Assembly (NCBI GenBank): GCA_014729135.1
Contig: WJKK01000001.1
Coordinates: forward strand, 128,593-192,592
Direction: 5' to 3'
Origin: a candidate division WWE3 bacterium
GTDB lineage: Bacteria > Patescibacteriota > WWE3 > UBA101185 > UBA10185
Length of the DNA stretch: 64,000 bases
Part shown: positions 3,334-62,042 of the stretch, piece after piece
Layout of the letters: each line of letters starts with the position of its first letter
Numbering within the stretch: the stretch's first letter is position 1
Program-made: the position numbers and the translations under genes
Notes under the pieces: generated by a model
Databases searched by the model: none
What the model saw: only the letters and a program-made list of their open reading frames with translations
What the model was told of the DNA's origin: nothing

Positions 3334-3801
3334 ATGCTGCTAGCAAAGAACAGAAAAGCGCTTTATAACCATGAAATAATTGAAAAGTACCTCGCTGGAG
3401 TGGTCCTAAAAGGGTATGAAGTAAAGGCAATTCGCGAAGGAAAAATAAGTTTTGAAGGATCCTATATAAAAGTGCAAAATGGAGAGGCTTTTGCCATAAA
3501 TATCCATATTGGAAAATACTCCAAACAATCGCAAGAACTGTCGCAGAGGCAGGAAAAACATCCTTTAAAACTACTCCTCAACCAACGAGAAATTGAAGAA
3601 ATCGCGCGGGAAACGCATCAAAAAGGGAAAACAGCAGTACCTATAGCTTTCGTTTTACGTAATAATATGATAAAATTGGAGTTAGCTGTAGTGAAGGGAA
3701 GAAAAGAGTATGAGAAGAAACAGCTTGCTAAGAAACGCCAAGTAGAAAAGGATCTGCAAAGGCAAAGAAAGAATTTAAAATTCGGGGATGACCGGATTTG
3801 A
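3334..3801 (+). CDS. smpB: SsrA-binding protein SmpB
   Basis: 155 aa. The SmpB pattern (GVVLKGYEVKAIREGKISFEGSYIKVQNGEAF...PLKLLLNQREIEEI...KGKTAVPIAFVL...KLELAVVKGRKEYEKK) is present and the gene lies immediately upstream of tmRNA, which is the classic arrangement. Confidence 0.85.
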   Translation: MLLAKNRKALYNHEIIEKYLAGVVLKGYEVKAIREGKISFEGSYIKVQNGEAFAINIHIGKYSKQSQELSQRQEKHPLKLLLNQREIEEIARETHQKGKTAVPIAFVLRNNMIKLELAVVKGRKEYEKKQLAKKRQVEKDLQRQRKNLKFGDDRI

Positions 3802-4175
3802 TTGATTGCACTTTTAAAATATGGGCGCAAGCCAAGCTGCTGATGCTTGTTAAACACAGCAAAAAACACTTGCCGATACAATGGTAAGAGAGCCTGCACT
3901 AGCGGGCGCAATGGCCTAAAATTAGTTTAATTACTATTTAGGTCAGGTTCCTAAAAGCCTATCCGGGGGGTTTTAGAGAATCTTATAAAACCGGAGTGAG
4001 GGGTTTGGAGCCGGTAATTCCAAAATCCAAGGGCTAAAAAACCCAAACACTTTACCTAGGGAGGACCTAGAAAGCGCGTTAAAGGCTTTCCCTTCTGAAA
4101 ATAACTTTAACTAAGCTTGTAGATACTCATATTTGGTCTTTCAAGACGGGGGTTCGATTCCCCCCATCTCCACCA
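3784..4175 (+). ncRNA. ssrA: tmRNA (ssrA), one-piece
   Basis: 5' end GGGGAUGACCGGAUUUGA resembles the tmRNA 5' tRNA-like domain. The 3' end is GGGGGUUCGAUUCCCCC-CAUCUCC-ACCA: T-arm plus acceptor strand plus ACCA. The acceptor stem pairs GGGGAUG with CAUCUCC, including a G3-U70 alanine identity pair. Length is about 392 nt. The candidate tag ORF ends at UAA 3917-3919 (...ALAGAMA*), but the tag frame is uncertain. Confidence 0.75.
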
Positions 4176-4268
4176 GAAAGCATTCGCTACGCGAATGTTT
4201 CTGGCCCAAGCAAATACGAGCGAATGCGAGTATTTGTTTGCTGCCTCACAAATCCAAAAGACTTGTGA
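4175..4268 (+). terminator. terminator hairpin plus two further conserved hairpin modules immediately 3' of tmRNA
   Basis: AGAAAGCATTCGC-TAC-GCGAATGTTTCT (4175-4202). Then CAAATAC-GAGCGAATGCGAG-GTATTTG (4211-4236) and CACAA...TTGTG (4246-4268). The same modules follow tRNA-Arg at 7582-7675. Confidence 0.5.
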
Positions 4269-4334
4269 ATACTTCCAGACTTTGCACACCACCCGCACTC
4301 CCCGATTTGTTAAACAATCCGCTATAATAAGCAC

Positions 4335-4937
4335 ATGTATCTAAACAAACTGGCAGAAACCATCCTTAAATACAACCACCCAAAGAAAATAAGCAAGGTA
4401 AACTTCGCCAAAACCATATACCTAGTTCATAAATACCTCTGTCAAAATAAAAAATCCAAAAACACAGCAATAAAGTACATTAGAATGCCTCTGGGGCCGG
4501 TTCCAAAGGGATTCATGGATCTACACAACCACAATAAAAACATCAAAGTTTCCATAAGAAACACAGAAAACGATCTGTTGTATAACACGGAGAATTACTC
4601 TATTGAAAACAGGGAAATAGAACATTTCGCTAAAGATACGGAACTGGAAATAAAAAAACTCGCAAAAGCGCTGCAAAGATTCCCAACTAGCAAATTAGTA
4701 GATTACACGCATAAAGAACCTTCCTGGAAAAAAAGAAAAAACGGGGAAGAATATTTTATACAAAAAGAGGACCTGAAAAGAAAACTCCCTAACGTACGGG
4801 GAAGAAAAAGACAAAAAACAAAAGAAAATTCAAGAATACAAGCTCAACTTTTAGAGGGACTACTAGAAGACATTGTCACAGAGAGTACAAAGCTGGAATA
4901 TCCAGATTTAAACCAAGATGGAAAAAAGTCTCAGTAA
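4335..4937 (+). CDS. Panacea-domain (SocA/DUF4065-like) putative antitoxin
   Basis: The N-terminal region (KVNFAKTIYLVHKYLCQ...AIKYIRMPLGPVPKGF) resembles the Panacea/DUF4065 domain. It overlaps and precedes a Fic/Doc gene, an arrangement like SocAB. Confidence 0.45.
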   Translation: MYLNKLAETILKYNHPKKISKVNFAKTIYLVHKYLCQNKKSKNTAIKYIRMPLGPVPKGFMDLHNHNKNIKVSIRNTENDLLYNTENYSIENREIEHFAKDTELEIKKLAKALQRFPTSKLVDYTHKEPSWKKRKNGEEYFIQKEDLKRKLPNVRGRKRQKTKENSRIQAQLLEGLLEDIVTESTKLEYPDLNQDGKKSQ

Positions 4938-5622
4938 GAATGATGTAACAAGAAACCTGTGGAATTCCTATAAGAAGAGCGAGGAATATGCGAAAGGAAT
5001 GCATAAAGCAATTCCGGAAAATCACCCCTTAATACAAGAGCGGGAGAAAGAGGGCTTACAACATATCTACTCCCAGGTTAAAAACAAGACCGCCCAAGGA
5101 GAGCTTGCGTTTAAAAAGCTCAAAAAACGAACAGTAGGTAGTTGGGTTAATGAGTGGAAAAAAATGCATTCCACACTTTTTGGAACAGTGCTTAAAGAGC
5201 ATGGGCATTTAAGAAAGAACGATGTCAGGTTTGGAGGTATTGACAGTGTAGAAAAACACAAAATACCCACCTATAAAGAGGTACCTCGAGAGATAAACAA
5301 GCTAGCCTACAAAATACCCCAATTTATGCAAGAAACAAAGGAACAAAGTGAAATCTGCAAAATTCTAGCAAAAATACACTATCAATTTATTCGAATACAC
5401 CCTTTTTACGACGGAAACGGAAGAATAGCACGCGTCTTAACGGATCAAATTTCAGTGGCATATGGATTGCCCCCAGCCATAGCGGGATATCCCCGGCATG
5501 ATAAAAAAAGAAGAGAAGCCTATCACAAAGCAATCGATTCCTGCGCAGAGGATTCAACGTGCGAAAGTCTGGCCCTCTGGATTGAGGGTTATATAAGCAA
5601 ACAGAAAGAACAACTTGCTTAA
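4918..5622 (+). CDS. Fic/Doc family protein (putative AMPylating toxin)
   Basis: Canonical Fic motif HPFYDGNGRIAR (HxFx[D/E]GNGRxxR). Confidence 0.8.
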   Translation: MEKSLSKNDVTRNLWNSYKKSEEYAKGMHKAIPENHPLIQEREKEGLQHIYSQVKNKTAQGELAFKKLKKRTVGSWVNEWKKMHSTLFGTVLKEHGHLRKNDVRFGGIDSVEKHKIPTYKEVPREINKLAYKIPQFMQETKEQSEICKILAKIHYQFIRIHPFYDGNGRIARVLTDQISVAYGLPPAIAGYPRHDKKRREAYHKAIDSCAEDSTCESLALWIEGYISKQKEQLA

Positions 5623-5743
5623 AATTTCTGTAGCTTTATGGAAATCTTTATAAAACTGCAAATCCTTTTATTTTTTAGTGCTGTTGTTATCTTTTTTGGA
5701 ATTGGCTACATGATGGAAATCTAACCGTTCAAGACCTTACTTC

Positions 5744-5772
5744 TTGACACAAGGTTACACAATGTGTAATAT
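5744..5772 (+). promoter_or_regulatory. sigma70-like promoter with overlapping palindromic operator for the vapBC-like operon
   Basis: TTGACA (5744-5749), a 17-nt spacer, then TAATAT (5767-5772) with an upstream TGTG. The palindrome TTACACAATGTGTAA (5755-5769) overlaps the -10 element. The start codon is at 5782. Confidence 0.45.
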
Positions 5773-5781
5773 GTAATCATT

Positions 5782-6027
5782 ATGAACAGAGTACAAGTAT
5801 TACTAAAACCTGAAACCATAACTAAAGTAAAAAAAGCCGCCAAAAAGAACAAAACCTCTGCCTCCGGCTTTATTAGAGAGGTGGTAGAGAAGGAGCTGGA
5901 AAAGGAAAAATCTAAAAAGGACCCCATAAAAATCCTATTAAATGCAGCTAAAAACGCGTCCAAAGGAGGTCCCAGAGACCTCAGCACCAATGATGACTAT
6001 CTTTATGGCAAGGACAGCGTACTATGA
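5782..6027 (+). CDS. ribbon-helix-helix antitoxin (VapB/CopG-like)
   Basis: 81 aa with an RHH-like segment (SASGFIREVVEKELEK). It overlaps the downstream PIN gene by 4 nt (ATGA). Confidence 0.5.
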   Translation: MNRVQVLLKPETITKVKKAAKKNKTSASGFIREVVEKELEKEKSKKDPIKILLNAAKNASKGGPRDLSTNDDYLYGKDSVL

Positions 6028-6428
6028 GAATTCTAATAGATGCTGATACCTATATAGCCCTCTACAACAAAGACGACGCCCTACACAACAAAGCAAATAA
6101 AATCCTAAATTCTCTCAAAAACAAAGATGTAGAAACCTTTACTACTTATGATGTTGTGGATGAAGTGGCGACTAAATTGTCTTATTTCTTAAAAAAATCG
6201 GATTCTCTGAGGTTTTTAAAGCAGTTAATGGAGTCCGAAACAGAAATAATCTATCCCACCGAAAACAGCCTCCTTGAAACAATAGAAAAAGTGAAATCAA
6301 TAAGGTCTAAAAGAGTTTCTTTCACGGATTGCGCAAATATGATTGCTTACAAGCATTACGACATAGATGCGATTTTTTCTTTTGACAAGATTTACGAGAA
6401 GCAAGGGATAAAAACGTTGAAACCATGA
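6024..6428 (+). CDS. vapC: PIN-domain toxin (VapC-like)
   Basis: 134 aa with N-terminal ILIDADTYIAL (acidic D residues) and C-terminal FTDCANMIAYKHYDIDAIFSFDK, the typical PIN signature. Confidence 0.75.
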   Translation: MRILIDADTYIALYNKDDALHNKANKILNSLKNKDVETFTTYDVVDEVATKLSYFLKKSDSLRFLKQLMESETEIIYPTENSLLETIEKVKSIRSKRVSFTDCANMIAYKHYDIDAIFSFDKIYEKQGIKTLKP

Positions 6429-6455
6429 TAAAATAGGCACTGCTAGGCCAAACAT

Positions 6456-6544
6456 GGAGGGTTGGCAGAGTGGTAATGCAGCGGCTTGCTAAGCCGTCAC
6501 CGTGTAATAGCGGTGCGTGGGTTCGAATCCCGCACCCTCCGCCA
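6456..6544 (+). tRNA. tRNA-Ser (anticodon GCU), class II with long variable arm
   Basis: Acceptor GGAGGGT/ACCCTCC. Anticodon loop TTGCTAA. The long variable arm is CACCGTGTAATAGCGGTG. T-loop TTCGAAT. CCA is encoded. Confidence 0.85.
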
Positions 6545-6757
6545 AAAAGATTCCGCTACGCGGAACTTTTTGGGCCAGGTAAATTCGACTGAATAGGAGA
6601 ATTTAGCTGCAACGTAAAAGTTCCAGGAACTTTTACGGATCTTCCAAAATTGCAAATTTTGGAAGCACCTTCAAGTGTAGCGAAGCTACCTTGAATAGCT
6701 TTTGCGCAGCAAAAGGTGAGCTCTTCTAAAGATCCTGACTTTCGTCAGGATGACGCT
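6545..6757 (+). repeat. array of six consecutive near-perfect hairpins (modular repeat) 3' of tRNA-Ser
   Basis: First hairpin is a terminator-like AAAAGATTCCGC-TAC-GCGGAACTTTTT. Then a 12-bp stem CGTAAAAGTTCC/GGAACTTTTACG (6613-6637). An 11-bp stem CTTCCAAAATT-GCA-AATTTTGGAAG (6641-6665). TTCAAGTGTAGC-GAA-GCTACCTTGAA (6669-6694). GCTTTTGC-GCA-GCAAAAG (6698-6716). ATCCTGAC-TTTC-GTCAGGAT (6732-6751). A near-identical copy of 6597-6727 occurs at 14088-14218. Confidence 0.6.
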
Positions 6758-6822
6758 ACCCTCCAGCGGCATAACTCCCACAAATTGCAAACAACAAAAA
6801 ACCCCGCTAAAATAAACCCAAC

Positions 6823-7404
6823 ATGCAACTAAACCAAATCACAGACTTCCTAGGACTCACCGACACAAAATCAAAAGAACCCGAGCCCGCCGACAATCCC
6901 GTATTCAACGTAGAGCAGGCAGGAGAAAAAAAGACCCTTGTAGAATGGGAAGCTCCCTTAAGAACCCCGCTAAAAGCAATGGGAGGTAAACTAAAAAAGA
7001 ACCTCCTAATAGTTGCCATAGTAATGGGGCTTTTCCTCCTTCTAATAGGTGAATACTTCATAATCCTTGTGGTTGCAAGCGTCGTCTTCATTGGATACAT
7101 CCTGTCGGCAACCCCCGCAGAAACCGTCCACTACGAAATCACCACTCACGGCATAAAATACGTGAATCAATTTTACTACTGGAACGAGTTTGGACCTTTC
7201 TTCATTACGGAAGACAATGGAGTGGCCGTGCTAAACGTTGATATGAAAGAGCAAATTCCGGCAAGGCTCTTTATTACTATAAAGGAAGGGCAAAAGGAGA
7301 AGGTTAAGGAGGCATGTGCTAAATATTTGCCTTATTTAGAGGAAAAGCCCGAAACATTCTTGGACAAAGCTTACGAAAAGATTACAAGCAAGCTGGATTT
7401 TTAG
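6823..7404 (+). CDS. hypothetical membrane protein (two central TM helices)
   Basis: 193 aa with hydrophobic segments LLIVAIVMGLFLLLIGEYFIILVVASVVFIGYIL. No recognisable family. Confidence 0.5.
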   Translation: MQLNQITDFLGLTDTKSKEPEPADNPVFNVEQAGEKKTLVEWEAPLRTPLKAMGGKLKKNLLIVAIVMGLFLLLIGEYFIILVVASVVFIGYILSATPAETVHYEITTHGIKYVNQFYYWNEFGPFFITEDNGVAVLNVDMKEQIPARLFITIKEGQKEKVKEACAKYLPYLEEKPETFLDKAYEKITSKLDF

Positions 7405-7505
7405 CTTTCCGATTTAATTTCCCTGTTTTAAAAGTATAGGTTTTAAGAGATAACAAAGGTTTTTCTGTATTTTGCGGTATAATACGCGATGTGGGAGCAG
7501 TGTTT

Positions 7506-7581
7506 GCGCCCGTAGCTCAGTGGATAGAGCACAGCATTGCGGATGCTGGGGTCGGGGGTTCGAGTCCCTCCGGGCGCGCCA
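7506..7581 (+). tRNA. tRNA-Arg (anticodon GCG as encoded)
   Basis: Acceptor GCGCCCG/CGGGCGC. Anticodon loop TTGCGGA (34-36 = GCG). T-arm GGGGG-TTCGAGT-CCCTC. CCA is encoded. Confidence 0.75.
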
Positions 7582-7720
7582 AAAAGATTCCGCTACGCGG
7601 AACTTTTTGGCCCAAGCAAATGTGAGCGAATGCGAACATTTGTTTGCTGCCTCACAAGTTGTACTCAACTTGTGAAGAGGAGAATTTAGCTGCACCCGAG
7701 GCATTTGCCAAAGGCAAATG
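7582..7720 (+). repeat. hairpin-module array 3' of tRNA-Arg, sharing modules with the tmRNA 3' region and the tRNA-Ser 3' region
   Basis: AAAAGATTCCGC-TAC-GCGGAACTTTTT. Then CAAATGT-GAGCGAATGCGA-ACATTTG (7617-7642). The stem covaries against 4211-4236 (TAC/GTA changes to TGT/ACA) while the loop is conserved. Then TCACAAGTTG-TACT-CAACTTGTGA (7652-7675), whose reverse complement is at 12671-12694. Then GCATTTGCC-AAA-GGCAAATGC (7700-7722). Confidence 0.55.
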
Positions 7721-7794
7721 GCGAACTATTTTAACGCGGGTATTTGTTTGAAAATAACAAGTCGCATTAGATAATTATTCTTGTCATCCAAGCC

Positions 7795-9139
7795 CTCTTG
7801 TTAGATAAAAATTCAATGTCATCCAAATTAAACAAATAAATATTAGAATGCTACCTAAAGTATCTGTTTCCTGCCCTCTTTAGGAAGGATCTCTATGAAT
7901 GATTTTGATATGAATTTAACTCAAAAAATGGCTAAAAATTACAAAAAAGCTGCCAAAAAGGACAAGTCCAAAATCTTGGATGATTACTGCAAATTAACTC
8001 AGGTTAAGCGTAATACTGCCGTAAAACGCTTTAGAAGAAAAATACGTAAACCTTATCCTAAGGCTTTACCTATAAAACCAAAGAAAAGGGGTAGAAAGAA
8101 AAAGTACTCTCAAATCCACAAATTACTTATTCAAAATATTTGGGATCTGGCAGATCAAATCTGTGCAGAACGTCTCTACCCTTGCCTGCCTCTATATGTA
8201 GAACAACTACATAAATCAGAAAAACTTAATGGATTCCCTCAAGAAGTTATTGATTGTGTCTTAAATATCCCCCTAGGTACACTTAAATACTTCATCGCAG
8301 ATTTCCCTAAACCTACTTACAAAAAGAAACGTAAGGGCAATAAAGATCTGTATAAACAAATCCCTATAAAAGCTAACTTCGGAAAACACTCTAATAAACC
8401 CGGTTTTGTGGAAGTTGATTATGTAGAGCATAATCAAGGAAGTAACGGTACCTGGGCTATCTCAGGCTGTTACAACGATATCTTCTCAGGATGGATTACA
8501 AGAGCTGCCGGTATGGGTAAATCTTATGAATCCGTTAAAGCCATCCATAAAAAGTGTATGAATGGCTTTTTTCATAAAATAATAGAACTTCATCCCGATA
8601 ATATGCTTTCCACCCTTAAACTACTACTTGAAGACATGATTACAAAAGAAAACCCAACAGGCCTCTTTTATGTCTCAAGATCAAGACCGTATGAAAGTAA
8701 TGATAATGCCCATGTTGAACAAAAAAACGGTGACAAAATAAGACGTCTTGTTGGTTACCATCGCTACGGCACCAAAGAACAACTAAACCTCCTAAATAAA
8801 CTCTATTCAGTTAGTGACCTCTATGATAACTTCTTTATTCCCTCTGCAAAACTAAAAGAAAAAATTATGGATACTAATGGTCGCGTTATTAAAAGAAAAC
8901 ATGATAAACCTAAAACACCTTTCCAACGCCTCCTGGAAAGTGAAGATATTTCCCCAATAGTGAAAAATAACCTTAAAACTGCCTGTGCTAAACTAAACAT
9001 GGTTGATCTAAAAGCTCAAAGAGATAAACTTGTGCAAAAACTAACGAAGACTGTATTAAATTAGATGACAAAATTTTTATCTAACAAGGGGTAAAAAAAG
9101 GGCATTTGGATGACATCGAATTTTTATCTAATACGAGTC
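7795..9139 (+). mobile_element. insertion sequence (about 1.35 kb) with about 30-bp terminal inverted repeats, inserted between tRNA-Arg and tRNA-Ala
   Basis: Left end is CTTGTTAGATAAAAATTCAATGTCATCCAA (7797-7826). Right end is TTGGATGACATCGAATTTTTATCTAATACGAG (9106-9137), the reverse complement with 3 mismatches. A second subterminal copy GATGACAAAATTTTTATCTAACAAG lies at 9065-9090. The element encloses a single transposase ORF. Confidence 0.6.
7895..9064 (+). CDS. DDE transposase (rve/integrase-type catalytic core; IS30/IS481-like)
   Basis: 389 aa. The basic N-terminus is a putative HTH. Candidate catalytic residues are FVEVDYVEH (D1), HPDNMLS (D2) and SRPYESNDNAHVEQKNGDKIRRL (E region, resembling the integrase-core motif RPY..P..NG.vER). 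Confidence 0.65.
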   Translation: MNDFDMNLTQKMAKNYKKAAKKDKSKILDDYCKLTQVKRNTAVKRFRRKIRKPYPKALPIKPKKRGRKKKYSQIHKLLIQNIWDLADQICAERLYPCLPLYVEQLHKSEKLNGFPQEVIDCVLNIPLGTLKYFIADFPKPTYKKKRKGNKDLYKQIPIKANFGKHSNKPGFVEVDYVEHNQGSNGTWAISGCYNDIFSGWITRAAGMGKSYESVKAIHKKCMNGFFHKIIELHPDNMLSTLKLLLEDMITKENPTGLFYVSRSRPYESNDNAHVEQKNGDKIRRLVGYHRYGTKEQLNLLNKLYSVSDLYDNFFIPSAKLKEKIMDTNGRVIKRKHDKPKTPFQRLLESEDISPIVKNNLKTACAKLNMVDLKAQRDKLVQKLTKTVLN

Positions 9140-9228
9140 GCTTCCTGCGACTTGTTAGGTATAACAAAAAGCTCACTCATGCTCGCTTTTTGTTAAACCT
9201 TAAAGGTTTTCTTACGAAAACACTTTAA

Positions 9229-9305
9229 GGGCCGTTAGCTCAGATGGCTAGAGCACTACATTCGCATTGTAGAGGTCGTGGGTTCGAATCCCGCACGGTC
9301 CACCA
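9229..9305 (+). tRNA. tRNA-Ala (anticodon CGC)
   Basis: Acceptor GGGCCGT/ACGGTCC with a G3-U70 pair. Anticodon loop TTCGCAT. T-loop TTCGAAT. CCA is encoded. Confidence 0.85.
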
Positions 9306-9320
9306 TGCTAAAATTAAGAC

Positions 9321-10352
9321 ATGCCTAAAATGAAACCAGCAGCACACCAGGAACGACCAAAACCAATAGAAACACAAAGAGATGACCCCTTAGCAAGGAT
9401 TCGAGAAGAAATCCCACCTTACCGCGAAACTTCAGGCTTAGAAAAAGAACCTTATGGATTACATCCGGATGACGCTCACTTAGGGCGCTATCTAGCTTTA
9501 AAAACACACGTAGCTACTAAAGAGCGAAGCCCTGAAGGCTGGGATGTGTACATAAACAACAATGCAAATTTTAGACTACCTGAAGAGTGGTTCCAAAGCA
9601 ACGCGGAAAGAGAAGAAACAGAACTGGAAACTCTCTCTAAAAGAACCACACATTTTCTAGCAAAACTAGGAAAAAACCGAGGAGGCTCTCTAACAGAATT
9701 TACCCAAGCCTGTCTCAAAGACGCTCAAAGACAAGAAGCCCTGGCCAGACTGTTACAGGCCTTCCCTAAGATAAGCCTAAACATCGCAACAGAGTACATT
9801 CCATTTGCACTTGACCGCCTTTCAGCAGCTCTTGACGAAGATGCAGAATTAGCAATTTTAATAGCTGAGGGAGAAATTGAGGCCTTAGGTAAAAACATGG
9901 GGGTACTTACACCGGGAATAGTCCTGAAACCAGAGGGAGGAAGAAAAGAGGCGGCTCTTTTAGCGCATAAAATGGAAGCGCTATTTCAAGATTGTGCAGA
10001 AGAGATAAGAGGAGGATCTCTTCCAAGGGAAACCGGGAATTTAGTACTTGTAGAAACAGGTAGAAAATCTCTCGAAAAAACCTTACTAGCAAATGCCCCC
10101 GGCGTTGTAGAAAAGGCTGCGGCAGAACCGCCCCCGCATCTTTCGGAAGCATGGACACGTGCCCCCGAGCAAGTTGAAGAATATCCCCTTGAACAGTTGG
10201 AAAAGGACATACAGCTCCTGGAAAAATTCGAAGAGAATTACGACCCAAAGGAGATACGGAATCAGTGGAGGGAAGCCCTGGAAGAAAAACCATATCCGGA
10301 ACAAAGGCGAGAGGCCGTTGAAAAACTCCTGTATGGAGAAGAAAAAAGCTAA
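9321..10352 (+). CDS. hypothetical charged (E/K/R-rich) protein; possible cargo of an integrative element
   Basis: 343-aa ORF starting 16 nt after tRNA-Ala. Local GC is higher than in neighbouring genes, which is why many spurious antisense ORFs are called here. No family recognised. Confidence 0.45.
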   Translation: MPKMKPAAHQERPKPIETQRDDPLARIREEIPPYRETSGLEKEPYGLHPDDAHLGRYLALKTHVATKERSPEGWDVYINNNANFRLPEEWFQSNAEREETELETLSKRTTHFLAKLGKNRGGSLTEFTQACLKDAQRQEALARLLQAFPKISLNIATEYIPFALDRLSAALDEDAELAILIAEGEIEALGKNMGVLTPGIVLKPEGGRKEAALLAHKMEALFQDCAEEIRGGSLPRETGNLVLVETGRKSLEKTLLANAPGVVEKAAAEPPPHLSEAWTRAPEQVEEYPLEQLEKDIQLLEKFEENYDPKEIRNQWREALEEKPYPEQRREAVEKLLYGEEKS

Positions 10353-10394
10353 AGCGCTTTCAAATCCCCAAACAACCCCCTATACTATAAATAC

Positions 10395-10991
10395 ATGGGA
10401 ATATATAGCTTAAAAACAACTCTGGAACGAGAAGAAATAGGTCTCGGCTCCTTCCTAAACCCAAAGCACACAAGAGGCATAGGACGTCCAACAGAAAAAA
10501 GGGCAAGTGCAGAGGACGTGGAAAAAAAACAAGTGCAACTCTCCCCAGAGGCCAAGACACGCTTCAAAACAACAGCCACAGGAACCCTCCTGGAAATACA
10601 CCAACAACATGGCGGAAAACCCCAAGAACAAAGAAGACAAGCGCTAGAAATAAGAAAACAACTTGGAGAATACCTAGGTCCTGAAGAACTCAAAGAAGTT
10701 GCGGCAGGAGCAGCCCTCCTTTTAGCAATACAACAAACAGAAGATTATTCGGGCTATCTTGAAGAGAAAGCAGGAATAGTACTAACAGGAAAATTTGCCT
10801 ATAAAGCTGAACTAAAAACAGAGGAAGGGTCGCAAATGCAAGTACAAAACCTCTCCACGGAAGAAGAACCAACTCTCCAAATAACCCTTGGAGATGAACT
10901 TTTTAACGCAACTACAGGAGAACCCAATGCAAATCTTGGAGAAAAAATAGAAAGAGCCTTGAGGGAGGCGGAAATTACACCAAGAACTTAA
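10395..10991 (+). CDS. hypothetical protein
   Basis: 198-aa ORF. No family recognised. It lies between tRNA-Ala and a tyrosine recombinase. Confidence 0.4.
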   Translation: MGIYSLKTTLEREEIGLGSFLNPKHTRGIGRPTEKRASAEDVEKKQVQLSPEAKTRFKTTATGTLLEIHQQHGGKPQEQRRQALEIRKQLGEYLGPEELKEVAAGAALLLAIQQTEDYSGYLEEKAGIVLTGKFAYKAELKTEEGSQMQVQNLSTEEEPTLQITLGDELFNATTGEPNANLGEKIERALREAEITPRT

Positions 10992-11881
10992 AGCGTAACC
11001 AACTCCACCTTCTGACCACTCTCCTCAACACCGGCATACTCCAAATAACGCTCCGTAGTAGAAACCCTCTTATGCCCCACAACCTTAGAAACATAAGCCA
11101 AACTCACATCATTCTTCAGCTGCTGTGCAATAAACGTATGGCGCAAATCATTCACCGTAGCATCATCAATATCGGCCTTCTCAAAGTAACGATTAATAGT
11201 AGAACGAATATTTCGCACCAACATAGGATTTCCCGTACGCGTAATAAACAAAAATTCACTCTCCTGGTCCTCACGACCCTCATCAATATAACGCTTTATA
11301 GCAGCCTGGGCGATCTCATTCAAAGGAACCGTACGTTCATTTTTAGAACCTCTAGCAGGAATATATAAGTAAGGATCCTTACCTTCCGTGGAAGCAGTTT
11401 TTTCAGTATCCATGTGGAGGTGTGCCAGCTTTATACCGGCAATTTCAGAAATAGAAATTCCTGTTTGCAAAAAGACCTCTATTAAAGCATAAGTGCGCAA
11501 ATCGCCACGAGCCACATCCCTTAAAGCGCGATACTCCAGTGCGGACAAAATTCTAGGAGGGGACACCTTAACCTCAGGATGCTCCAGCCGAGAGGCAGGA
11601 TCATCACTCACATATCTTTTAGTATCAAGGAAGGAAAAGAAAGTCTTTGTAGAGTTAGTCTTTCGAGAAATAGTCTTATTGGTATAGCCCTTCTCCGCAA
11701 AGTGCTCCATGAAATCCTCCAAATCCTCCAGAGAGACATCATTAGGATCAGTAATCCCATTTTTCTCCATAAAATTAGCCAATTGCTCAATATCCTTGCT
11801 GTAAGCAATTAGAGTAGAGTTTGCTCTTCCAAGCTCCTCCAAATATTTAACAAATTGTTTTCTAGCTTCTTTTAGATTCAT
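10988..11881 (-). CDS. tyrosine recombinase / integrase (XerC/XerD-like)
   Basis: 297 aa. N-terminal SAM-like core-binding domain. C-terminal catalytic motifs ARGSKNER...LRHTFIAQQL...VGHKRVSTTERYL (R..H-x-x-R..H..Y). Confidence 0.8.
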   Translation of the reverse strand: MNLKEARKQFVKYLEELGRANSTLIAYSKDIEQLANFMEKNGITDPNDVSLEDLEDFMEHFAEKGYTNKTISRKTNSTKTFFSFLDTKRYVSDDPASRLEHPEVKVSPPRILSALEYRALRDVARGDLRTYALIEVFLQTGISISEIAGIKLAHLHMDTEKTASTEGKDPYLYIPARGSKNERTVPLNEIAQAAIKRYIDEGREDQESEFLFITRTGNPMLVRNIRSTINRYFEKADIDDATVNDLRHTFIAQQLKNDVSLAYVSKVVGHKRVSTTERYLEYAGVEESGQKVELVTL

Positions 11882-11946
11882 TATTTTTATCGTATTCTAA
11901 GGCAGAAATTAGTAACATAAACTTATCCTATAGACTACCATAACAC

Positions 11947-12351
11947 TTGTATTCCGTCAACTCTTTACTTACAATGACACTGATGCACATTACTGCCCGA
12001 CTAAAGTATATCCTTTTAACTATCCTGTTTATTGCGGGTTCGGTTAACATGATTTCCACTACAAAAAAGGTGATAAAGAGTAGTAAACGCCTTAATGAGG
12101 CGGAGGAGAATGTTTTGTCTTTAAAGGAGGAGCAGCGGGGGCTTTTGGAGGAGATTAAGTATAAGGAGACAACGGAGTATGTGGGGGAGGTGGCGCGAGA
12201 TCAGTTGGGTTTGATTAAGCCGGGTGAGGAGGTTTATATTTATCCTGATACTGAAGGGGATTTTGAGGGGGCGGTCTCTATGGAGGGGTCTTGGCGGCGT
12301 TCTGAGGAGTTGGCTCCTTGGCGGCAGTGGGTGAAGTTGGTTTTTTGGTAA
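11947..12351 (+). CDS. septum formation initiator family protein (FtsB/DivIC-like)
   Basis: N-terminal TM segment followed by a coiled coil. The motif VARDQLGLIKPGEEVYIY matches the FtsB/DivIC C-terminal signature. Confidence 0.55.
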   Translation: MYSVNSLLTMTLMHITARLKYILLTILFIAGSVNMISTTKKVIKSSKRLNEAEENVLSLKEEQRGLLEEIKYKETTEYVGEVARDQLGLIKPGEEVYIYPDTEGDFEGAVSMEGSWRRSEELAPWRQWVKLVFW

Positions 12352-12395
12352 GGCTAGTGGTTGCTGGCTCTGTTTTTGGTGGTAGTAAAAGGGAG

Positions 12396-12472
12396 TGGTG
12401 CCAACGCCTGGGATCGAACCAGGGACCTGGCGCTTATGAAACGCCCGCTCTTACCGACTGAGCTACGTTGGC
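12396..12472 (-). tRNA. tRNA-Met, elongator (anticodon CAU); tRNA-Ile2 via lysidine cannot be excluded
   Basis: Reverse complement is GCCAACG-TA-GCTC-AGTCGGTAA-GAGC-G-GGCGT-TTCATAA-GCGCC-AGGTC-CCTGG-TTCGATC-CCAGG-CGTTGGC-A-CCA. The 1-72 pair is G-C. Confidence 0.8.
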
Positions 12473-12819
12473 TTACCTGCAGTGCATGAGGGATTATACC
12501 AAGTTTTTGTGGGGATGGTGTGGGTGAGGTGTTGTCATTCCGTGATTGATACGGAATCCGGAAGGACCTTGTGGGTTGCGGAATTGTCATTCCGTGCTTG
12601 ACACGGAATCTGTGTTTCATACGGTGAACACCCCTTAGTTTGCAAAGTTCGCCTTTGGCGAGACTTTGGTTCACAAGTTGAGTACAACTTGTGAGGTAAC
12701 AAATAAAACCTACCTTGTTACCGCAGCTCATCTTTTGCTACGCAAAAGATTCGGGCGCAGCTAAATTCTCCTGTTCAGTCGAATTTACCTGATCCATTCG
12801 GGTCGCTACGCGACACGAA
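12473..12819 (-). repeat. hairpin-module array between the two CAU tRNAs (3' of initiator tRNA), containing reverse-complement copies of modules seen on the + strand elsewhere
   Basis: ATTCCGT-GATTGAT-ACGGAAT. ATTCCGTG-CTTGA-CACGGAAT. GCAAAGTTCGCC-TTTG-GCGAGACTTTG (reverse complement of 14053-14080). TCACAAGTTG-AGTA-CAACTTGTGA (reverse complement of 7652-7675). GGTAACAA...TTGTTACC. ATCTTTTGC-TAC-GCAAAAGAT. GCAGCTAAATTCTCCTGTTCAGTCGAATTTACC (reverse complement of 6578-6611). Confidence 0.5.
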
Positions 12820-12893
12820 TGGTTGCGGGGCCCGGATTCGAACCGGGGTCTTCAGATTATGAGCCTGACGAGGTACCGCTCCTCCACCCCGCG
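12820..12893 (-). tRNA. initiator tRNA-fMet (anticodon CAU)
   Basis: Reverse complement is CGCGGGGTGGAGGAGCGGTACCTCGTCAGGCTCATAATCTGAAGACCCCGGTTCGAATCCGGGCCCCGCAACCA. The acceptor stem is identical to E. coli tRNA-fMet, including the C1-A72 mismatch. The anticodon stem has only two of the three canonical G-C pairs (A29-U41, G30-C40, G31-U39). Confidence 0.85.
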
Positions 12894-12994
12894 CTAAACA
12901 TTGAAAATCGTAACAAAAAAGCTAGACCCTGTCAAAAAAGCAAATTCTTAGAAAAAGGGCGCAGACTTAGACCCATGCTAAAATAAATCCCACT

Positions 12995-13834
12995 ATGCAA
13001 AAAGCCCTACAAAAACTCAAAACCCAAGTTTGTGATTTAAAAAATCCCCAAAAACTACCCGGAAAAAAATTTAAAAGCTTTATAGAGAACACCCAAGTAG
13101 CCTTAATGGCGGGTGGCCAAGGAACACGTTTCCGAGAGGTTTTAGAATCCAAGGAAGTCAATAAAAACGCGCATAAACTACCTAATGGCGAAACCATGAT
13201 TGAACGCACTATTAAAATGTACGCCAAAGCGGGAATTAAAAACTTCATTGCCCTTGTTTACCACAGTTCCAATTCTATAATAGAAAAGTTGGGAAACGGT
13301 GAAAAGTTAGGTGTTGAAATCACTTATAGTCACGACCCGGATCGTCCCGTCGGTAAGGGAGGAGCTGTTCTAAACGCTTTGCAAAACGGCAGTATTGATC
13401 CAACTAAAAACTTAATAGTACACAATCCGGACGATGTGATTGTCAATTTCGAGCAGGATTTCGTAAAACATATAATTTCAGGGCACATACAAAACGTACA
13501 GCAAGGGGCTGAGGCTAGTATTGTAGTGGTAGAAGAAACTCCTTACCCTTTTACCGGAATGAAAATCAAAGAAAACAAAGTGGAGGAAGTGGAAATGTAT
13601 CCCCTGATTCCAATACCTACACACATTGGTGTCACTATCTTTTCACCAGAAGTTTTCAAGTATTTTCCGAAATTATTTGATTTGACAAAAAAGTCCGATT
13701 TTGAAAAAGTACTCTTCCCGATTCTATCAAAAGAAAAAAAGCTCTATGCTGTAAGCATTCCCGGTGACTCCTGGATTGCAGTAAATAACCTTAAAACATA
13801 CAAAAAATTTGTCGAATACCTTCAAAAAAGCTAA
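12995..13834 (+). CDS. sugar-phosphate nucleotidyltransferase (NTP_transferase family)
   Basis: Motif ALMAGGQGTRFRE (LxxGGxGTRL). Overall fold resembles G1P thymidylyl/uridylyl/guanylyltransferases. Confidence 0.7.
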   Translation: MQKALQKLKTQVCDLKNPQKLPGKKFKSFIENTQVALMAGGQGTRFREVLESKEVNKNAHKLPNGETMIERTIKMYAKAGIKNFIALVYHSSNSIIEKLGNGEKLGVEITYSHDPDRPVGKGGAVLNALQNGSIDPTKNLIVHNPDDVIVNFEQDFVKHIISGHIQNVQQGAEASIVVVEETPYPFTGMKIKENKVEEVEMYPLIPIPTHIGVTIFSPEVFKYFPKLFDLTKKSDFEKVLFPILSKEKKLYAVSIPGDSWIAVNNLKTYKKFVEYLQKS

Positions 13835-13890
13835 ATCAATGTTAAAATCATAACTGCTTTTGAATATTTAGAGAGAAAACAAGCAACTTA

Positions 13891-13981
13891 GGAGGGATGC
13901 GAGAGCGGTCAAATCGGCTCGCCTGGAAAGCGACGCGCTGCATAAAGCGGCACGGGGGTTCGAATCCCCCTCCCTCCGCCA
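13891..13981 (+). tRNA. tRNA-Ser (anticodon GGA), class II
   Basis: Acceptor GGAGGGA/TCCCTCC. 3-bp D stem CGA/TCG. Anticodon arm CTCGC-CTGGAAA-GCGAC. Long variable arm. T-arm GGGGG-TTCGAAT-CCCCC. CCA is encoded. Confidence 0.75.
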
Positions 13982-14218
13982 TTAAAGTGCCTAAGGCACT
14001 TTAATGCGCTTGTCAAAATGAAAAAAGGAATAATTTCATTTTGACATGCCTGCAAAGTCTCGCCAAAGACGAACTTTGCATACTAGAAAATTTAGCTGCA
14101 ACGTAAAAGTTCCTGGAACTTTCCGGATCTTCCAAAATTGTAAATTTTGGAAGCACCTTCAAGTGTAGCGAAGCTACCTTGAATAGCTTTTGCGCAACAA
14201 AAGGTGAGCTCCCTAAAC
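13982..14218 (+). repeat. hairpin-module array 3' of tRNA-Ser(GGA), including a near-identical copy of 6597-6727
   Basis: TTAAAGTGCC-TAA-GGCACTTTAA. TGTCAAAATGAAA-N10-TTTCATTTTGACA. GCAAAGTCTCGCC-AAA-GACGAACTTTGC. Then about 130 bp matching 6597-6727 with a few substitutions. The terminal ATCCTGAC-TTTC-GTCAGGAT module is displaced to 14597-14616, beyond ORF 14229-14552. Confidence 0.5.
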
Positions 14219-14228
14219 GAATAAAAAC

Positions 14229-14552
14229 TTATTCAATCCACACAGAATCAATGACATATGTCTTAACGGCTACTCTTAAAGAAGCATCTACTAGAGCCTT
14301 GACTTCTCTTAATAAAACTTCAGCCCAGCCTCGGATCTTATCTCGCCTGGGAGGAGAAGTTTCTCCTCTCAATAAAAGATCTGGAGCATTCTTGGGTACA
14401 GGAGACAACCAAGGCTCGTAACCCACAATAATACTTTCAGGCTGCTTATCTAGCGAAGTCGAAGTAACCTCGATAATTTTATCTGTAAGTTCGTTTTCTA
14501 AATTTCCGGTGAAATCTTCGGAAGCTTTGTACTTTACTATAATTGTAGACAT
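14229..14552 (-). CDS. hypothetical protein embedded within the hairpin repeat element
   Basis: 107-aa ORF with no family recognised. It is flanked at 14088-14218 and 14597-14616 by modules that are contiguous in the other copy (6597-6751). Confidence 0.4.
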   Translation of the reverse strand: MSTIIVKYKASEDFTGNLENELTDKIIEVTSTSLDKQPESIIVGYEPWLSPVPKNAPDLLLRGETSPPRRDKIRGWAEVLLREVKALVDASLRVAVKTYVIDSVWIE

Positions 14553-14670
14553 GTTAACCTCATTATACCTTTATCAAGAGCTTACGCCAACAGCAGGATC
14601 CTGACTTTCGTCAGGATGACAGAAAAATCCCCAAGCAAAAAACCTAATTAGAAATTTCCGACATCAACAG

Positions 14671-16533: not shown

Positions 16534-17420
16534 AAATTTTCCAAATCCTCCATTAAACTTTTTACCAAATTGGGAATATTTTCCAATTCCTCGTGTGTAT
16601 AGACATATCCTAAAGCATTTAAACAGGAGAACACAACTCCCGGGTCGGAATAAATTTCCTCCGCATACGTACAAGCAACTAAACTATGAACTAAAACGTT
16701 TCCGGAAGTTTCCCCTACCTGAGACTTATCACATCCCATAGGACATCCAACACAGGAGGGATTATCCGCCGGAGAAATTTTAAGCTTTTGGGCTTCATTA
16801 AAGAGCTTAAGATACAATTTCCCGTAACGGGAAATGCCTTCAATATCAAAAGAAGAGTCGGCGTTTATTAGCAACCCTCCTAAGTTACGCTTTGCAAATA
16901 AAAAGGAGAGCAAATGATCTTTGGTATGAAAATAATCATCTAAAAGTAAGTGCTCCTTAAAACTTAACAAAGAGCTTCTTCCCGGAAGAGACTTTCCTGA
17001 AAACTCCTCAAAAGAGTCATAAAAGTTAACAGCACCTGAAGTTATTTCTGTAAAAACAGGAGTCTTAGACTTCCCCAAAATAACAACAGCATCCAAACCA
17101 ATAAAGCGAAGACGTGAAGACAAACTGCCTCCTAAATAAAGTTCCGTAAGACCTTTCCTGCCGGGATTAATTATAGAATTGGACTCTGTAGCAAGATCTA
17201 AATTGGATCCCGTTAAAACACAAGTCTTAGAAACATACGGAAAAAGGCCGTTTAAAGGACCAATAGAAAAAATCAAAGGATCCTCATCGGCATGCATTTG
17301 CAAAAGCTTTAATCCCAAAGCCAATCCACCCAGATAAGCGTGCAAATCGGGATACGTCTTAACGTTAAAGGTCTTATCGGAAAGATTGATATAAAGAACT
17401 TTTCTATTCGAGAAGTTCAT
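16530..17420 (-). CDS. miniaturised aldehyde:ferredoxin oxidoreductase (AOR)-family protein (AOR N-domain plus Fe-S loop only)
   Basis: 296 aa. The N-terminus matches the AOR_N domain: KVLYINLSDKTFNVKTYPDLHAYLGGLALGLKLL, GSLSSRLRFIGLDAVVILGKSKTPVF. The motif NPSCVGCPMGCDKSQVGETSG matches the AOR [4Fe-4S]-binding loop (C.xCP.GCgR...vGETeG). The roughly 300-aa pterin-binding domains of full-length AOR (about 600 aa) are absent. Confidence 0.5.
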   Translation of the reverse strand: MNFSNRKVLYINLSDKTFNVKTYPDLHAYLGGLALGLKLLQMHADEDPLIFSIGPLNGLFPYVSKTCVLTGSNLDLATESNSIINPGRKGLTELYLGGSLSSRLRFIGLDAVVILGKSKTPVFTEITSGAVNFYDSFEEFSGKSLPGRSSLLSFKEHLLLDDYFHTKDHLLSFLFAKRNLGGLLINADSSFDIEGISRYGKLYLKLFNEAQKLKISPADNPSCVGCPMGCDKSQVGETSGNVLVHSLVACTYAEEIYSDPGVVFSCLNALGYVYTHEELENIPNLVKSLMEDLENL

Positions 17421-42454: not shown

Positions 42455-42788
42455 TCTTATTTATATATATAAAACGTAGTAGTAGTAATAGTATTGTGGA
42501 TATGTTGATGGGCTTTTTTATGGCTTTTGTGGTGGTGTTTTTGGAGGGGTGTCTGTGTGGATAAGCTGTTTTTGGCTTTACTGTAGTGTTTGAAGGCTTT
42601 TTTGTTTGTATTTTTGCTTTTGTTTGGCGTTTTTTAAGTGTTGAAAAGTTGCAAAAATTTGTGGGTTTTGTTGTGGATAATTTTGCAGACTTATCCACAG
42701 AACTTTTAGGGTAGTGTTTTTTATCCACGCTTATCCACAAGTTTTCCACAACCTATCCCCAAAGTTTCAGCGCGCCCCCTTCCCTTAA
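42455..42788. promoter_or_regulatory. oriC-type DnaA-box cluster downstream of dnaA
   Basis: TTATCCACA-type 9-mers at 42556-42564 (reverse-complement orientation), 42672-42680 (reverse-complement orientation), 42691-42699, 42721-42729 (TTATCCACG) and 42731-42739. AT-rich stretch 42600-42670. Confidence 0.6.
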
Positions 42789-44378: not shown

Positions 44379-44660
44379 TTTATGTGTTTTTAGTTGGAGG
44401 GGCAGTGTAAAACTTGGCTTGTTGTGTGTATAACTTTAGAGAACTTATCCACATTTATAAAGCAATTCTAATTGATTCTTCTCTTGAAGGTGTGATGAGG
44501 TTCTTTAGAAGATGTGAATTTGAGTTAATTTAGTGATGTGCCTTAATGTCTTTGAAACGAAGTCCTCCTGAATTCAAATCTGTCATCCTGATGAAAATCA
44601 GGATCCTGTTGGTATGATCAGTTCCTTTGTTGACTTACTAACTCACATCCGTTATCATTT
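44379..44660. promoter_or_regulatory. dnaA/rpmH divergent intergenic region with DnaA box and ATCCTGA-family hairpin
   Basis: TTATCCACA at 44445-44453. Hairpin ATCCTGA-TGAAAA-TCAGGAT at 44584-44603. Confidence 0.4.
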
Positions 44661-61981: not shown

Positions 61982-62042
61982 GAATTATTAAAGCCTTTAA
62001 ACAAGGGTTTTTAGAATTTCCCGTAACGGGAATAGCTTTGGT

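Follow-up and report, generated by a model that had tools for sequence, protein, structure and literature searches.

This report concerns a stretch of 64,000 nucleotides (nt) from a candidate division WWE3 bacterium (contig WJKK01000001.1 of assembly GCA_014729135.1, positions 128,593 to 192,592), referred to below as the window. Seven stable-RNA genes, called by ARAGORN and Rfam, lie at 3.7–14 kb of the window and comprise a tmRNA gene and genes for tRNA-Ser (GCU and GGA), tRNA-Arg, tRNA-Ala and two tRNA-Met (Table 1). Five of them are followed, on their own strand, by arrays of consecutive hairpins (arrays A to E) built from a common set of short palindromic modules, which are designated T, H2, H3, H3' and H4 to H10. 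An earlier sequence-only reading of the window had assigned such hairpins to every tmRNA or tRNA locus; this holds for five of the seven, with tRNA-Ala (9229–9305) and the second tRNA-Met (12396–12472) having no array.

Structure and repetition of the arrays

Folding of three of the arrays in comparison with dinucleotide shuffles gave z-scores of −8.0 for 6542–6756 (plus strand), −7.4 for 12530–12822 (minus strand) and −8.6 for 13979–14215 (plus strand), with none of 200 shuffles as stable as the array in each case; an origin of the arrays by chance is excluded. The flanks of the two genes without arrays have z-scores of +1.3 (tRNA-Ala) and 0.0 (second tRNA-Met). The 50 intergenic regions of the window contain 36 strict hairpins in total; 19 of these fall in the five regions 3' of RNA genes, at three to five per region versus none to two elsewhere, and hairpins account for about 37% of the bases in these five regions versus about 8% elsewhere.

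The modules are near-perfect palindromes of 21–45 nt, present in two to seven copies each (86–100% identical within the window), and are joined by linkers of 1–4 nt; they differ from one another in sequence. The T hairpin combines a GC-rich apex with a T-tract and a matching upstream A-tract, and it matches the terminator consensus, read from either strand, only in arrays A, B and C. The other modules are without a free T-tract, and several have arms made of an A-tract and a T-tract. The arrays stop ahead of the next promoter-like site. Larger units also recur: a block of about 127 nt (6597–6723) is found again at 14086–14211 with 95–97% identity, array D is a mosaic of segments 86–94% identical to parts of arrays B, C and E, and orphan 3' halves of H2 stand at 7677–7694 and 14086–14100. 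The 36-nt ends of the RNA genes in the window, which include the conserved T-arm and CCA, are 61–86% identical to one another.

All of the modules quoted in the sequence-only reading are present at, or a few bases from, the positions that it gave. The T hairpins at 6542–6573 and 7579–7610 are 100% identical, with a variant at 4173–4204, and the H2 hairpins at 4204–4245 and 7610–7651 differ in three stem pairs, each with a compensating change (tac/gta versus tgt/aca), both as it described. The reverse-complement copies that it listed are likewise real for H3 (7652–7675 and 12671–12694), for H4 (14052–14079 and 12642–12668, 94% identical) and for the H2 hairpin at 6574–6610 (93% identical), although the last of these copies lies at 12757–12793, so that the position of 12742 was slightly off. 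Its remark that only the first module resembles an intrinsic terminator agrees with the consensus scan. Its statement that the modules occur in both orientations needs qualification: the reverse-complement copies sit in the array of a minus-strand tRNA-Met gene and thus have a single orientation relative to the RNA gene, the true exceptions being the inverted H2 at 9157–9200 and the H9 copies.

Table 1. Stable-RNA genes and hairpin modules of the window. R1 is the H2 covariance model described in the text; IS, insertion sequence.
Feature	Position	Strand	Remarks
tmRNA	3784-4175	+	array A behind
tRNA-Ser GCU	6456-6544	+	array B behind
tRNA-Arg GCG	7506-7581	+	array C behind
tRNA-Ala CGC	9229-9305	+	no array
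tRNA-Met (second)	12396-12472	-	no array
tRNA-Met (Met1)	12820-12893	-	array D behind
tRNA-Ser GGA	13891-13981	+	array E behind
Array A, T	4173-4204	+	begins in tmRNA CCA end, CCA pairs with TGG; one bulged G; TAC loop
Array A, H2	4204-4245	+	stem AAGCAAATAC / GTATTTGTTTG; R1 27.9 bits, E 3e-5; 28 nt past tmRNA
Array A, H3	4246-4268	+	TCACA...TGTGA type; degenerate; one A x C mismatch
Array B, T	6542-6573	+	terminator-like on both strands; 100% identical to 7579-7610
Array B, H2	6574-6610	+	AGGTAAATTC / GAATTTAGCTG subfamily (B-type); G x G mismatch
Array B, H5	6612-6637	+	perfect 11-bp palindrome; window version of H3' unit (cf. L047, CCCGAAAAGTTCC-AAA-GGAACTTTGAG)
Array B, H6	6641-6665	+	perfect 11 bp; GCA triloop
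Array B, H7	6669-6695	+	GCGAAGC apex; one bulged T
Array B, H8	6697-6717	+	GCGCAGC apex
Array B, H9	6731-6754	+	GATCCTGA-CTTTCG-TCAGGATGAC; dispersed family
Array C, T	7579-7610	+	100% identical to array B T
Array C, H2	7610-7651	+	R1 28.4 bits; 28 nt past tRNA-Arg
Array C, H3	7652-7675	+	TCACAAGTTG-TACT-CAACTTGTGA
Array C, orphan B-type H2 3' half, then H3'-like hairpin	7677-7726	+	GAGGAGAATTTAGCTGCA; CCCGAGGCATTTGCC-AAA-GGCAAATGGCGAAC
Array C, 5' arm of split hairpin	7756-7765	+	hairpin AACAAGTCGC-TTCCT-GCGACTTGTT; interrupted by IS
Array C, remainder of split hairpin	9133-9156	+	includes right target-duplication copy 9133-9141
Array C, inverted H2	9157-9200	-	TTAACAAAAAGC-GAGCATGAGTGA-GCTTTTTGTTA on minus strand; 29 nt upstream of tRNA-Ala; R1 35 bits minus strand vs 16 bits plus strand
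Array C, final hairpin before tRNA-Ala	9203-9225	+	GTTTTC-TTAC-GAAAAC
Array D, T	12794-12822	-	begins in CCA end of tRNA-Met
Array D, H2	12757-12793	-	B-type; 93% identical to 6571-6610
Array D, H3' unit	12726-12755	-	CCCGAA-TCTTTTGC-GTA-GCAAAAGA-TGAGC
Array D, H10	12695-12722	-	GGTAACAAG...TTGTTACC
Array D, H3	12671-12694	-	sequence and orientation relative to tRNA as in array C copy
Array D, H4	12642-12668	-	bulged C; 94% identical to array E copy
Array D, two H9-family hairpins	12534-12610	-	GATTCCGTG-TCAAG-CACGGAATGAC 12586-12610; GATTCCGTA-TCAAT-CACGGAATGAC 12534-12558
Array E, T	13979-14006	+	perfect 12 bp; TAA loop
Array E, H2	14008-14049	+	TTGTCAAAATGA subfamily; R1 15.5 bits; 25 nt past tRNA-Ser
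Array E, H4	14052-14079	+	reverse-complement copy is array D H4
Array E, orphan H2 3' half, then H5, H6, H7, H8	14086-14205	+	120-nt block, 95-97% identical to 6597-6717
Solitary H9	14597-14620	+	between two minus-strand protein genes; identical to 6731-6754
Solitary H9	44582-44605	-	dnaA upstream / oriC region
Solitary H9	57605-57629	-	between convergent protein genes
Composite in divergent intergenic region	61026-61134	+	8-bp inverted repeat GGGACAGC / GCTGTCCC around H7 (61064-61087, 96%) and H2 (61092-61125)

A conserved core unit with covarying stems

The window and its seven closest relatives with arrays (L001, L002, L038, L039, L046, L047 and L053; eight genomes in all) share one layout behind tRNA and tmRNA genes, namely CCA, T, GCC, H2, (T)GC and then H3' or H3. 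Two of the loci compared, both informative, were added by a metagenome scan with the neighbouring protein. T starts in the CCA of the gene and ends in TGG, with which the CCA pairs, and the GCC that follows T doubles as the foot of H2. H2 (37–48 nt) has the stem AACG(n)AAATnn...nnATTTCGTTG with a conserved bulge or mismatch five pairs above the base, while its apex can be as short as a GNA triloop or as long as 17 nt, the long apexes consisting of tandem G.A/A.G pairs, two to four extra base pairs (bp) and a tetraloop, as in array A (GAGC-GAAT-GCGA, with tandem G.A pairs, 2 bp and a tetraloop). The loop that the sequence-only reading took to be conserved is so only in two recent H2 copies; in the family as a whole conservation lies in the stem, and the apex (3–17 nt) varies more than any other part. 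H3' consists of CCCGAA, a variable stem-loop and TGAG, and H3 is of the form TCACA...TGTGA.

In the H2 alignment 92.6% of cells are paired, versus 75.6% in shuffles and 35–44% when the 3' partner is slid by one to three columns. Changes on both sides are seen in seven of the 11 pairs and in 43 cells, compared with 9.9 in shuffles (none of 500 reaching 43), and the inner pairs of the apex covary also (GAGC...GCGA versus GACT...AGGA). The 13 copies of H3' have 13 distinct arms, which pair over a mean of 6.3 bp with their own partner and 2.0 bp across copies. The covariation reported from the window alone is therefore real, and since the arms of both H2 and H3' covary the hairpins are maintained.

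The pattern of change in H2 is less typical of stems selected as RNA. G.T pairs occupy only five of 256 H2 cells (versus two A.C cells), one-sided intermediates are rare and several of the changes on both sides are transversions. The scarcity of G.T pairs and of one-sided intermediates forms a signature of DNA palindromes, arising through copying of one arm to the other or selection for perfect duplexes, and the near-absence of G.U pairs argues that the covariation reflects upkeep of the palindrome at the DNA level and is not proof of an RNA function.

Position relative to RNA genes

A covariance model (R1) built from seven H2 copies detects 25 copies of H2 in the 116 kb searched, which comprised seven loci of the subclade. 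Of these, 22 lie on the same strand as, and no more than 182 nt downstream of, a tRNA or tmRNA gene, a placement available to 3.8% of strand positions, and a 23rd follows the remnant of a tRNA 3' end at the start of a contig; 14 copies lie 24–30 nt after the gene. The L053 locus has the layout of the other subclade loci. Among the loci examined, T-H2-H3' is carried by tmRNA and by no fewer than eight tRNA genes, which represent four amino-acid types. No convincing H2 was found by R1 in 19 more distant WWE3 loci or in the species of L040–L045. The association with RNA genes noted from the window is thus tighter than could be seen there, in its offset of 24–30 nt, its restriction to the strand of the gene and its recurrence in eight genomes, although copies away from RNA genes do exist at 14597–14620, 44582–44605, 57605–57629 and 61064–61125.

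Derived origin and turnover

The gene order smpB, ssrA, tRNA-Ser, tRNA-Arg, tRNA-Ala, ..., tRNA-Met, tRNA-Met, tRNA-Ser is kept across WWE3. In L003, L010, L013, L014 and L040 the tRNA-Arg/tRNA-Ala and tRNA-Met/tRNA-Met pairs are spaced by 9–85 nt with no hairpins. A folding survey of the 120 nt behind 70 RNA genes of WWE3 loci (17 others being too short or gapped) found most tRNA 3' flanks to be unstructured, with z-scores near 0; strongly structured flanks are confined to the window, L001 and L002 (the surveyed loci of the subclade), L005 and a few tRNA genes of L004 and L023. The arrays are derived, because the more distant WWE3 genomes are without them. As an observation in its own right, most tRNA and tmRNA genes in L003–L025 and L040 have no detectable hairpin within 120 nt and so no obvious intrinsic terminator.

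Presence varies within the subclade as well. Behind tRNA-Met1 the window has an array of nine hairpins in a 347-nt spacer, whereas the 69-nt spacer of L001 has none; both retain the extended −10 promoter of the following tRNA gene. The tRNA-Arg gene has an array in the window, L001, L038, L046, L047 and L053 but not in L039, and the tRNA-Ala gene, which lacks an array in the window, is followed by one in L001, L038 and L046. Tandem pairs of T-H2-H3' units occur in L046 (tRNA-Ser CGA) and L047 (tRNA-Arg). Between genomes, H2 copies behind the same tRNA are on average no more alike (mean identity 0.627) than those behind different tRNAs (0.620). The closest H2 pairs are paralogues within one genome (0.97, 0.89 and 0.83), one pair between genomes reaches 0.94 with one copy behind tmRNA and the other behind tRNA-Ser, and four subfamilies of the H2 stem are common to several genomes at different loci. 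The syntenic protein of 193 amino acids (aa) is only 58–77% identical to the window copy in the array-bearing relatives. L001 is contig CAZWYL010000006.1, which is also the contig of L048, and L049 is another assembly of the same species; an apparent tRNA-Ala duplication at 12858–12957 of L001 is an assembly-gap artefact (100 N and a repeated tRNA 3' half), L049 having a single gene.

Insertions adjoining the RNA genes

An element resembling an insertion sequence (IS) occupies 7766–9132 (1367 bp) and is flanked by a 9-bp target duplication, AC(A/G)AGTCGC, at 7757–7765 and 9133–9141. It lies inside a hairpin of the tRNA-Arg array, and its excision restores a perfect 10-bp hairpin and an unbroken 274 nt from the tRNA-Arg CCA up to tRNA-Ala, in which there are about eight hairpins, among them the one inverted H2 (9157–9200). 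The ends of the element read ATTAGATAA..., and an end motif of about 28 nt (with TGTCATCCAA) is present twice at each end. Its single open reading frame (ORF; 7895–9064, 389 aa) has no match in Pfam or NCBIfam and may represent an undescribed transposase family. The element was considered as the mobiliser of the modules and rejected, its ends being unrelated to any module and its ORF being without a match in these databases.

Repeats of a tRNA 3' end, at least 9 nt in length, occur downstream of tRNA genes in L004, L008, L010, L014–L017, L023 and L038 but not within the 700 nt searched behind each gene in the window. An element of about 70 nt (aCGAGTAC...GGGACTAGG...TTGAGC) stands directly after the CCA of tRNA-Ala or tRNA-Ser in L038 (1943–2025), L046 (1488–1570 and 1781–1841), L039 (1–69), L015 (16476–16541) and L016 (11404–11470), and is followed by an exact duplicate of the tRNA end, 9–15 nt long overall and 13–15 nt in L038 and L046, and then by T-H2. 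It looks like a site-specific miniature insertion and is absent from the window. In distant WWE3 genomes complete tRNA genes are followed, 60–100 nt further on, by a second copy of the T-arm and acceptor 3' end, the T-loop of which is split by a structured, GC-rich insert (about 66–70 nt) that has no Rfam match; such interrupted copies are found in L004 (tRNA-Ser gct, cga and gga, and tRNA-Arg), L008 (12603–12850), L014 (6940–7150) and L023 (15603–15830, 18568–18790 and 19627–19800).

Between the tmRNA and tRNA-Ser genes of the window is an islet (4335–6428) with a SocA/Panacea antitoxin-like gene and a Fic gene, and an RHH-like gene and a PIN gene; no integrase is present in it. In relatives this interval varies from 86 nt to about 3 kb, as expected of an insertion hot spot at the tmRNA flank.

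Interpretation of the arrays

Since the arrays are derived, variably present, composed of tandem units, mosaic and accompanied by half-modules, and since similarity among copies does not follow orthology, they have the marks of a repeat family that is spreading or being exchanged among a specific class of sites, and not those of ancestral, fixed parts of the RNA genes. The explanation preferred here, with about an even chance of being correct, is that of a lineage-specific modular palindromic repeat family that homes to the 3' flanks of tRNA and tmRNA genes in the manner of bacterial interspersed mosaic elements (BIMEs), of REPINs (related to repetitive extragenic palindromes, or REPs) or of BOX elements. 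One WWE3 subclade would then have been colonised by repeat units that settled immediately 3' of these genes, with a core unit of about 100 nt (T, H2 and H3' or H3) and extra modules, H4 to H10, downstream. T, with its base of A-tract and T-tract, is most likely the intrinsic terminator of the RNA gene, working in both directions. Units would be gained, lost, duplicated in tandem and swapped among tRNA 3' flanks through recombination or transposition, giving mosaic arrays that extend up to the next promoter, and palindromy would be kept at the DNA level, with one arm copied onto the other or perfect Watson–Crick hairpins favoured by selection. The downstream modules would be mainly untranscribed passengers at the DNA level that may contribute to termination or insulation or block exonucleases. 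The spread itself could proceed by recombination seeded by the shared T-arm and CCA end or through a structure-specific recombinase or transposase.

Several results weigh against a spreading repeat family. For the modules themselves the analysis found no transposase, no terminal inverted repeats and no target duplications, and the arrays of the window contain no duplicated tRNA 3' end of at least 9 nt. Five contigs of the L001 species are 99.8–100% identical and show no insertion or deletion in the arrays between strains, so that movement is not observed in progress. The summed folding energy of H2 favours the sense strand (−393 versus −332 kcal/mol), and the fixed offset and strict sense orientation are also compatible with a host RNA function.

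Such a function, in which the hairpins are RNA elements selected by the host as transcribed 3' trailers and serve as serial terminators or insulators, as blocks to 3'-to-5' exonucleases or as sites for processing nucleases, is possible but somewhat doubtful. It would account for an orientation and an offset of 24–30 nt that hold across eight genomes, for a first hairpin that is terminator-like and sequesters the CCA end, for arrays that finish before the next promoter-like site and for covarying stems with a modestly more stable sense strand; the H2 apex, in which tandem G.A pairs are often combined with a short helix and tetraloop, and the common GNA-type triloops are also in its favour, as is the occurrence of units where a tRNA ends the transcription unit (in L039 the T hairpin follows tRNA-Ala and not tRNA-Arg). 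However, most WWE3 relatives and two tRNA genes of the window manage without such hairpins, which weakens the RNA-processing option raised in the sequence-only reading, and neither the variable presence at orthologous tRNA genes nor the independence of copy similarity from orthology is expected of a host element. There are also copies that are inverted or that lie in the oriC region or a divergent promoter region; modules beyond a good terminator may be little transcribed; and five G.U pairs in 256 cells are unusual for stems selected as RNA. A search of the arrays and relatives with the Rfam 15 covariance models, at the gathering threshold and at E values up to 5, returned tRNA and tmRNA only, so that the hairpins have no match to a known RNA family.

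The 3' ends of tRNA and tmRNA genes are classic integration sites, and the arrays could be scars of repeated site-specific integration, that is, decayed att-proximal remnants that accreted in tandem. This is considered unlikely, even though exact duplicates of 13–22 nt of tRNA 3' ends flank small inserts in L038, L046, L004, L008, L014, L015/16 and L023, the islet at the tmRNA flank of the window carries variable toxin–antitoxin genes within an interval that differs so widely among relatives, and weak echoes of tRNA ends exist in array B (ACCCTCC at about 6758) and array D (CCGCAACCCA at about 12575–12584). The window has no RNA-gene 3'-end duplicate of at least 9 nt within 700 nt downstream and does not contain the duplication-bearing 70-nt element of its relatives. 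Its sole integrase-family gene (10988–11881, 297 aa) encodes a Xer-like tyrosine recombinase, lies beside divIC and is syntenic in all relatives, and a sequence-specific att system leaves unexplained why seven different RNA genes carry the same modules. The modules are on no viral contig: module-pattern scans of viral contigs gave no matches or chance matches, and the 1.0 Mb of viral loci searched with R1 contained no convincing H2. Very unlikely is an origin as a mutational by-product without function or mobility, in which intra-strand template switching at replication makes or perfects palindromes beside strong terminators. The nearly exclusive use of perfect Watson–Crick pairs, the large excess of two-sided changes over one-sided intermediates and the resemblance of several modules to a truncated or inverted T hairpin (for example H5) would follow from such a process, but it leaves unexplained the primary motifs GCCAAC, AAAT/ATTT, CCCGAA and TGAG, which recur across genomes as diverged as the 193-aa protein indicates, the fixed order T-H2-H3' and the near-identical copies at distant loci.

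Within the repeat-family explanation, it is tentatively suggested that T-H2-H3' represents an as yet undescribed type of miniature mobile element in the candidate phyla radiation. The CCA end of any tRNA-like gene would be its target, recognised by shared structure (T-arm, acceptor end or terminator hairpin) and not by a specific sequence, and copies would accrete there in tandem. This would imply a recombinase or transposase specific for hairpins or for tRNA ends and would make the tRNA-end-duplicating elements of the relatives its cousins.

Comparison with known systems

Like REPs, BIMEs and REPINs, the modules are short extragenic imperfect palindromes (20–45 nt) at the 3' ends of genes, form mosaic arrays and subfamilies, show compensatory change and may have terminator or RNA-stabilising side effects. 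REPs and BIMEs are known from Enterobacteria, and the REPINs of Pseudomonas are mobilised by REP-associated tyrosine transposases (RAYTs); no such Y1 transposase is among the 20 window proteins scanned. A further likeness is the insertion of an IS into a hairpin, seen here at 7766–9132 and described for IS1397 and ISPpu9 in REPs (PMC8450116). The unpaired GTAG or CGTC tag at the end of the palindrome that defines REPs (PMC3733652) is present on no module: GTAG is confined to paired positions in the H7 stem, and CGTC to the edge of the H9 loop. REPs also differ in being spread behind protein genes, often in alternating orientation, whereas the present modules flank RNA genes at a fixed offset, in direct sense orientation and in low copy number, with 22–23 of the 25 H2 copies behind a tRNA or tmRNA gene in sense and only the H9 family dispersed. 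The BOX elements of Streptococcus pneumoniae are intergenic, non-coding and composed of modular boxes in a preferred order and variable number that form stable stem-loops. The arrays resemble them in all of these respects, but their sequence is unrelated, and no tie to RNA genes, or to a set distance from gene ends, is known for BOX elements.

With intrinsic terminators, including tandem ones, the arrays share the GC-rich apex, T-tract and A-tract of T and its place directly after an RNA gene. They differ in having three to nine hairpins instead of one or two, in mostly lacking a free T-tract, in using the same families behind unrelated genes and in being absent from most related genomes. The attC sites of integrons have R''/R' boxes (RYYYAAC / GTTRRRY), a length of 57–141 nt, extrahelical bases, a variable apex and a single orientation, and accompany cassettes and an integron integrase. 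The basal stem of H2 (GCCAAC...GTTG(N)GC), its conserved bulge, its variable apex and the single orientation of the arrays recall such sites. An attC array was nevertheless rejected, as the motif match is partial (GGCCAAC / GTTGYGCC), H2 measures 37–48 nt and there are neither cassettes nor an integron integrase. A CRISPR array was also rejected, the modules being dissimilar and abutting with linkers of 1–4 nt without regular spacing, and a kink-turn was rejected on its anatomy.

The sequence-only reading had proposed RNA 3'-processing or stability elements, protein-binding sites or a mobile family like miniature inverted-repeat transposable elements (MITEs), and the comparison between genomes favours the last of these in altered form. 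The suggestion of a MITE-like family stands as far as derived insertions, variable presence, tandem units and non-orthologous similarity are concerned. It fails on the terminal inverted repeats and target duplications typical of MITEs, which the hairpin modules do not have, and the ends of the IS at 7766–9132 are unrelated to the modules; the composite at 61026–61134 does carry an 8-bp inverted repeat. Integrative elements that target tRNA genes share the site at the 3' end and tandem accretion, and true tRNA-end duplications surround small inserts in the relatives, but the window arrays have neither duplicated tRNA ends nor an integrase of their own, and many RNA genes carry the same modules. 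In sponge mitochondria, lineage-specific hairpin repeats invade intergenic regions and disperse within the genome, with great differences among related taxa (PMC2800124). The likeness there is the lineage-specific invasion of the intergenic regions of a compact genome; the genetic system is another one, and a fixed relation to RNA-gene 3' ends is not reported for the mitochondrial repeats. For the mosaic habit the closest analogies are BIME and BOX elements, for the site they are tRNA-targeted integrative elements, and for the invasion of a compact genome they are the hairpin repeats of organelles.

The family joins two traits that are usually separate, the mosaic hairpin habit of REP, BIME and BOX elements and the tRNA 3'-end specificity of integrative elements. 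Genomes of the candidate phyla radiation are smaller than 1 Mb and tightly packed, and repeats that expand their intergenic DNA are unexpected. A full-text literature search found no published description of tRNA-linked hairpin arrays in these bacteria; the phenomenon itself is clear, unusual for so small a genome and apparently undescribed. If the units are mobile they point to a new mechanism for targeting the ends of stable-RNA genes, and if they are functional RNA they show one lineage gaining terminators and 3' trailers that are dispensable in its relatives. The T-H2-H3' unit is usable as a marker for this WWE3 subclade, and its repeats cause assembly breaks and spurious ORF calls near tRNA genes.

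Gene neighbourhood and other features of the window

The protein-coding neighbours of the RNA genes are MetRS, SmpB, the SocA/Fic and RHH/PIN pairs, the Xer-like recombinase, DivIC, a nucleotidyl transferase, LytR, TIM and DnaA. The relatives of SmpB are throughout from metagenome-assembled genomes (MAGs) of candidate division WWE3 or Patescibacteria (top identity 73%), and the 193-aa protein (6823–7404) is 100% identical to GF360_00570 of a WWE3 MAG. The two tRNA-Met genes lie, with array D and their own promoters, in a segment (about 12352 to 12995) whose orientation is opposite to that in L001, L003, L014 and L040; there both genes lie downstream of divIC on the same strand.

The replication origin is likely to be at 42789–44613, where dnaA (42789–44378, minus strand) is bordered by TTATCCACA boxes at 42691–42699 and 44445–44453, the cumulative GC skew has its minimum near 44 kb and the AT skew changes sign; the H9 copy at 44582–44605 is inside this putative origin region. 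With an origin at about 44 kb, the plus-strand tRNA and tmRNA genes at 3.7–14 kb would be transcribed head-on to replication.

Extended −10 boxes (TGnTAwAAT) are found 4–14 nt before an ATG at 1649, 3319, 9306, 12976, 25956, 31282 and 53829 on the plus strand and 21671 on the minus strand. Those at 1649, 3319, 9306, 12976, 25956 and 31282 abut the start codons of long ORFs, which suggests leaderless or near-leaderless mRNAs, and the same motif precedes the second tRNA-Met (12501, minus strand). A separate family of small hairpins, ATTTCCCG-TAAC-GGGAA(A)T, is present at 16813–16840 and 62012–62039, with weaker copies at 51778, 58564 and 59167; the one at 62012, which has convergent protein genes on either side, resembles an ordinary terminator.

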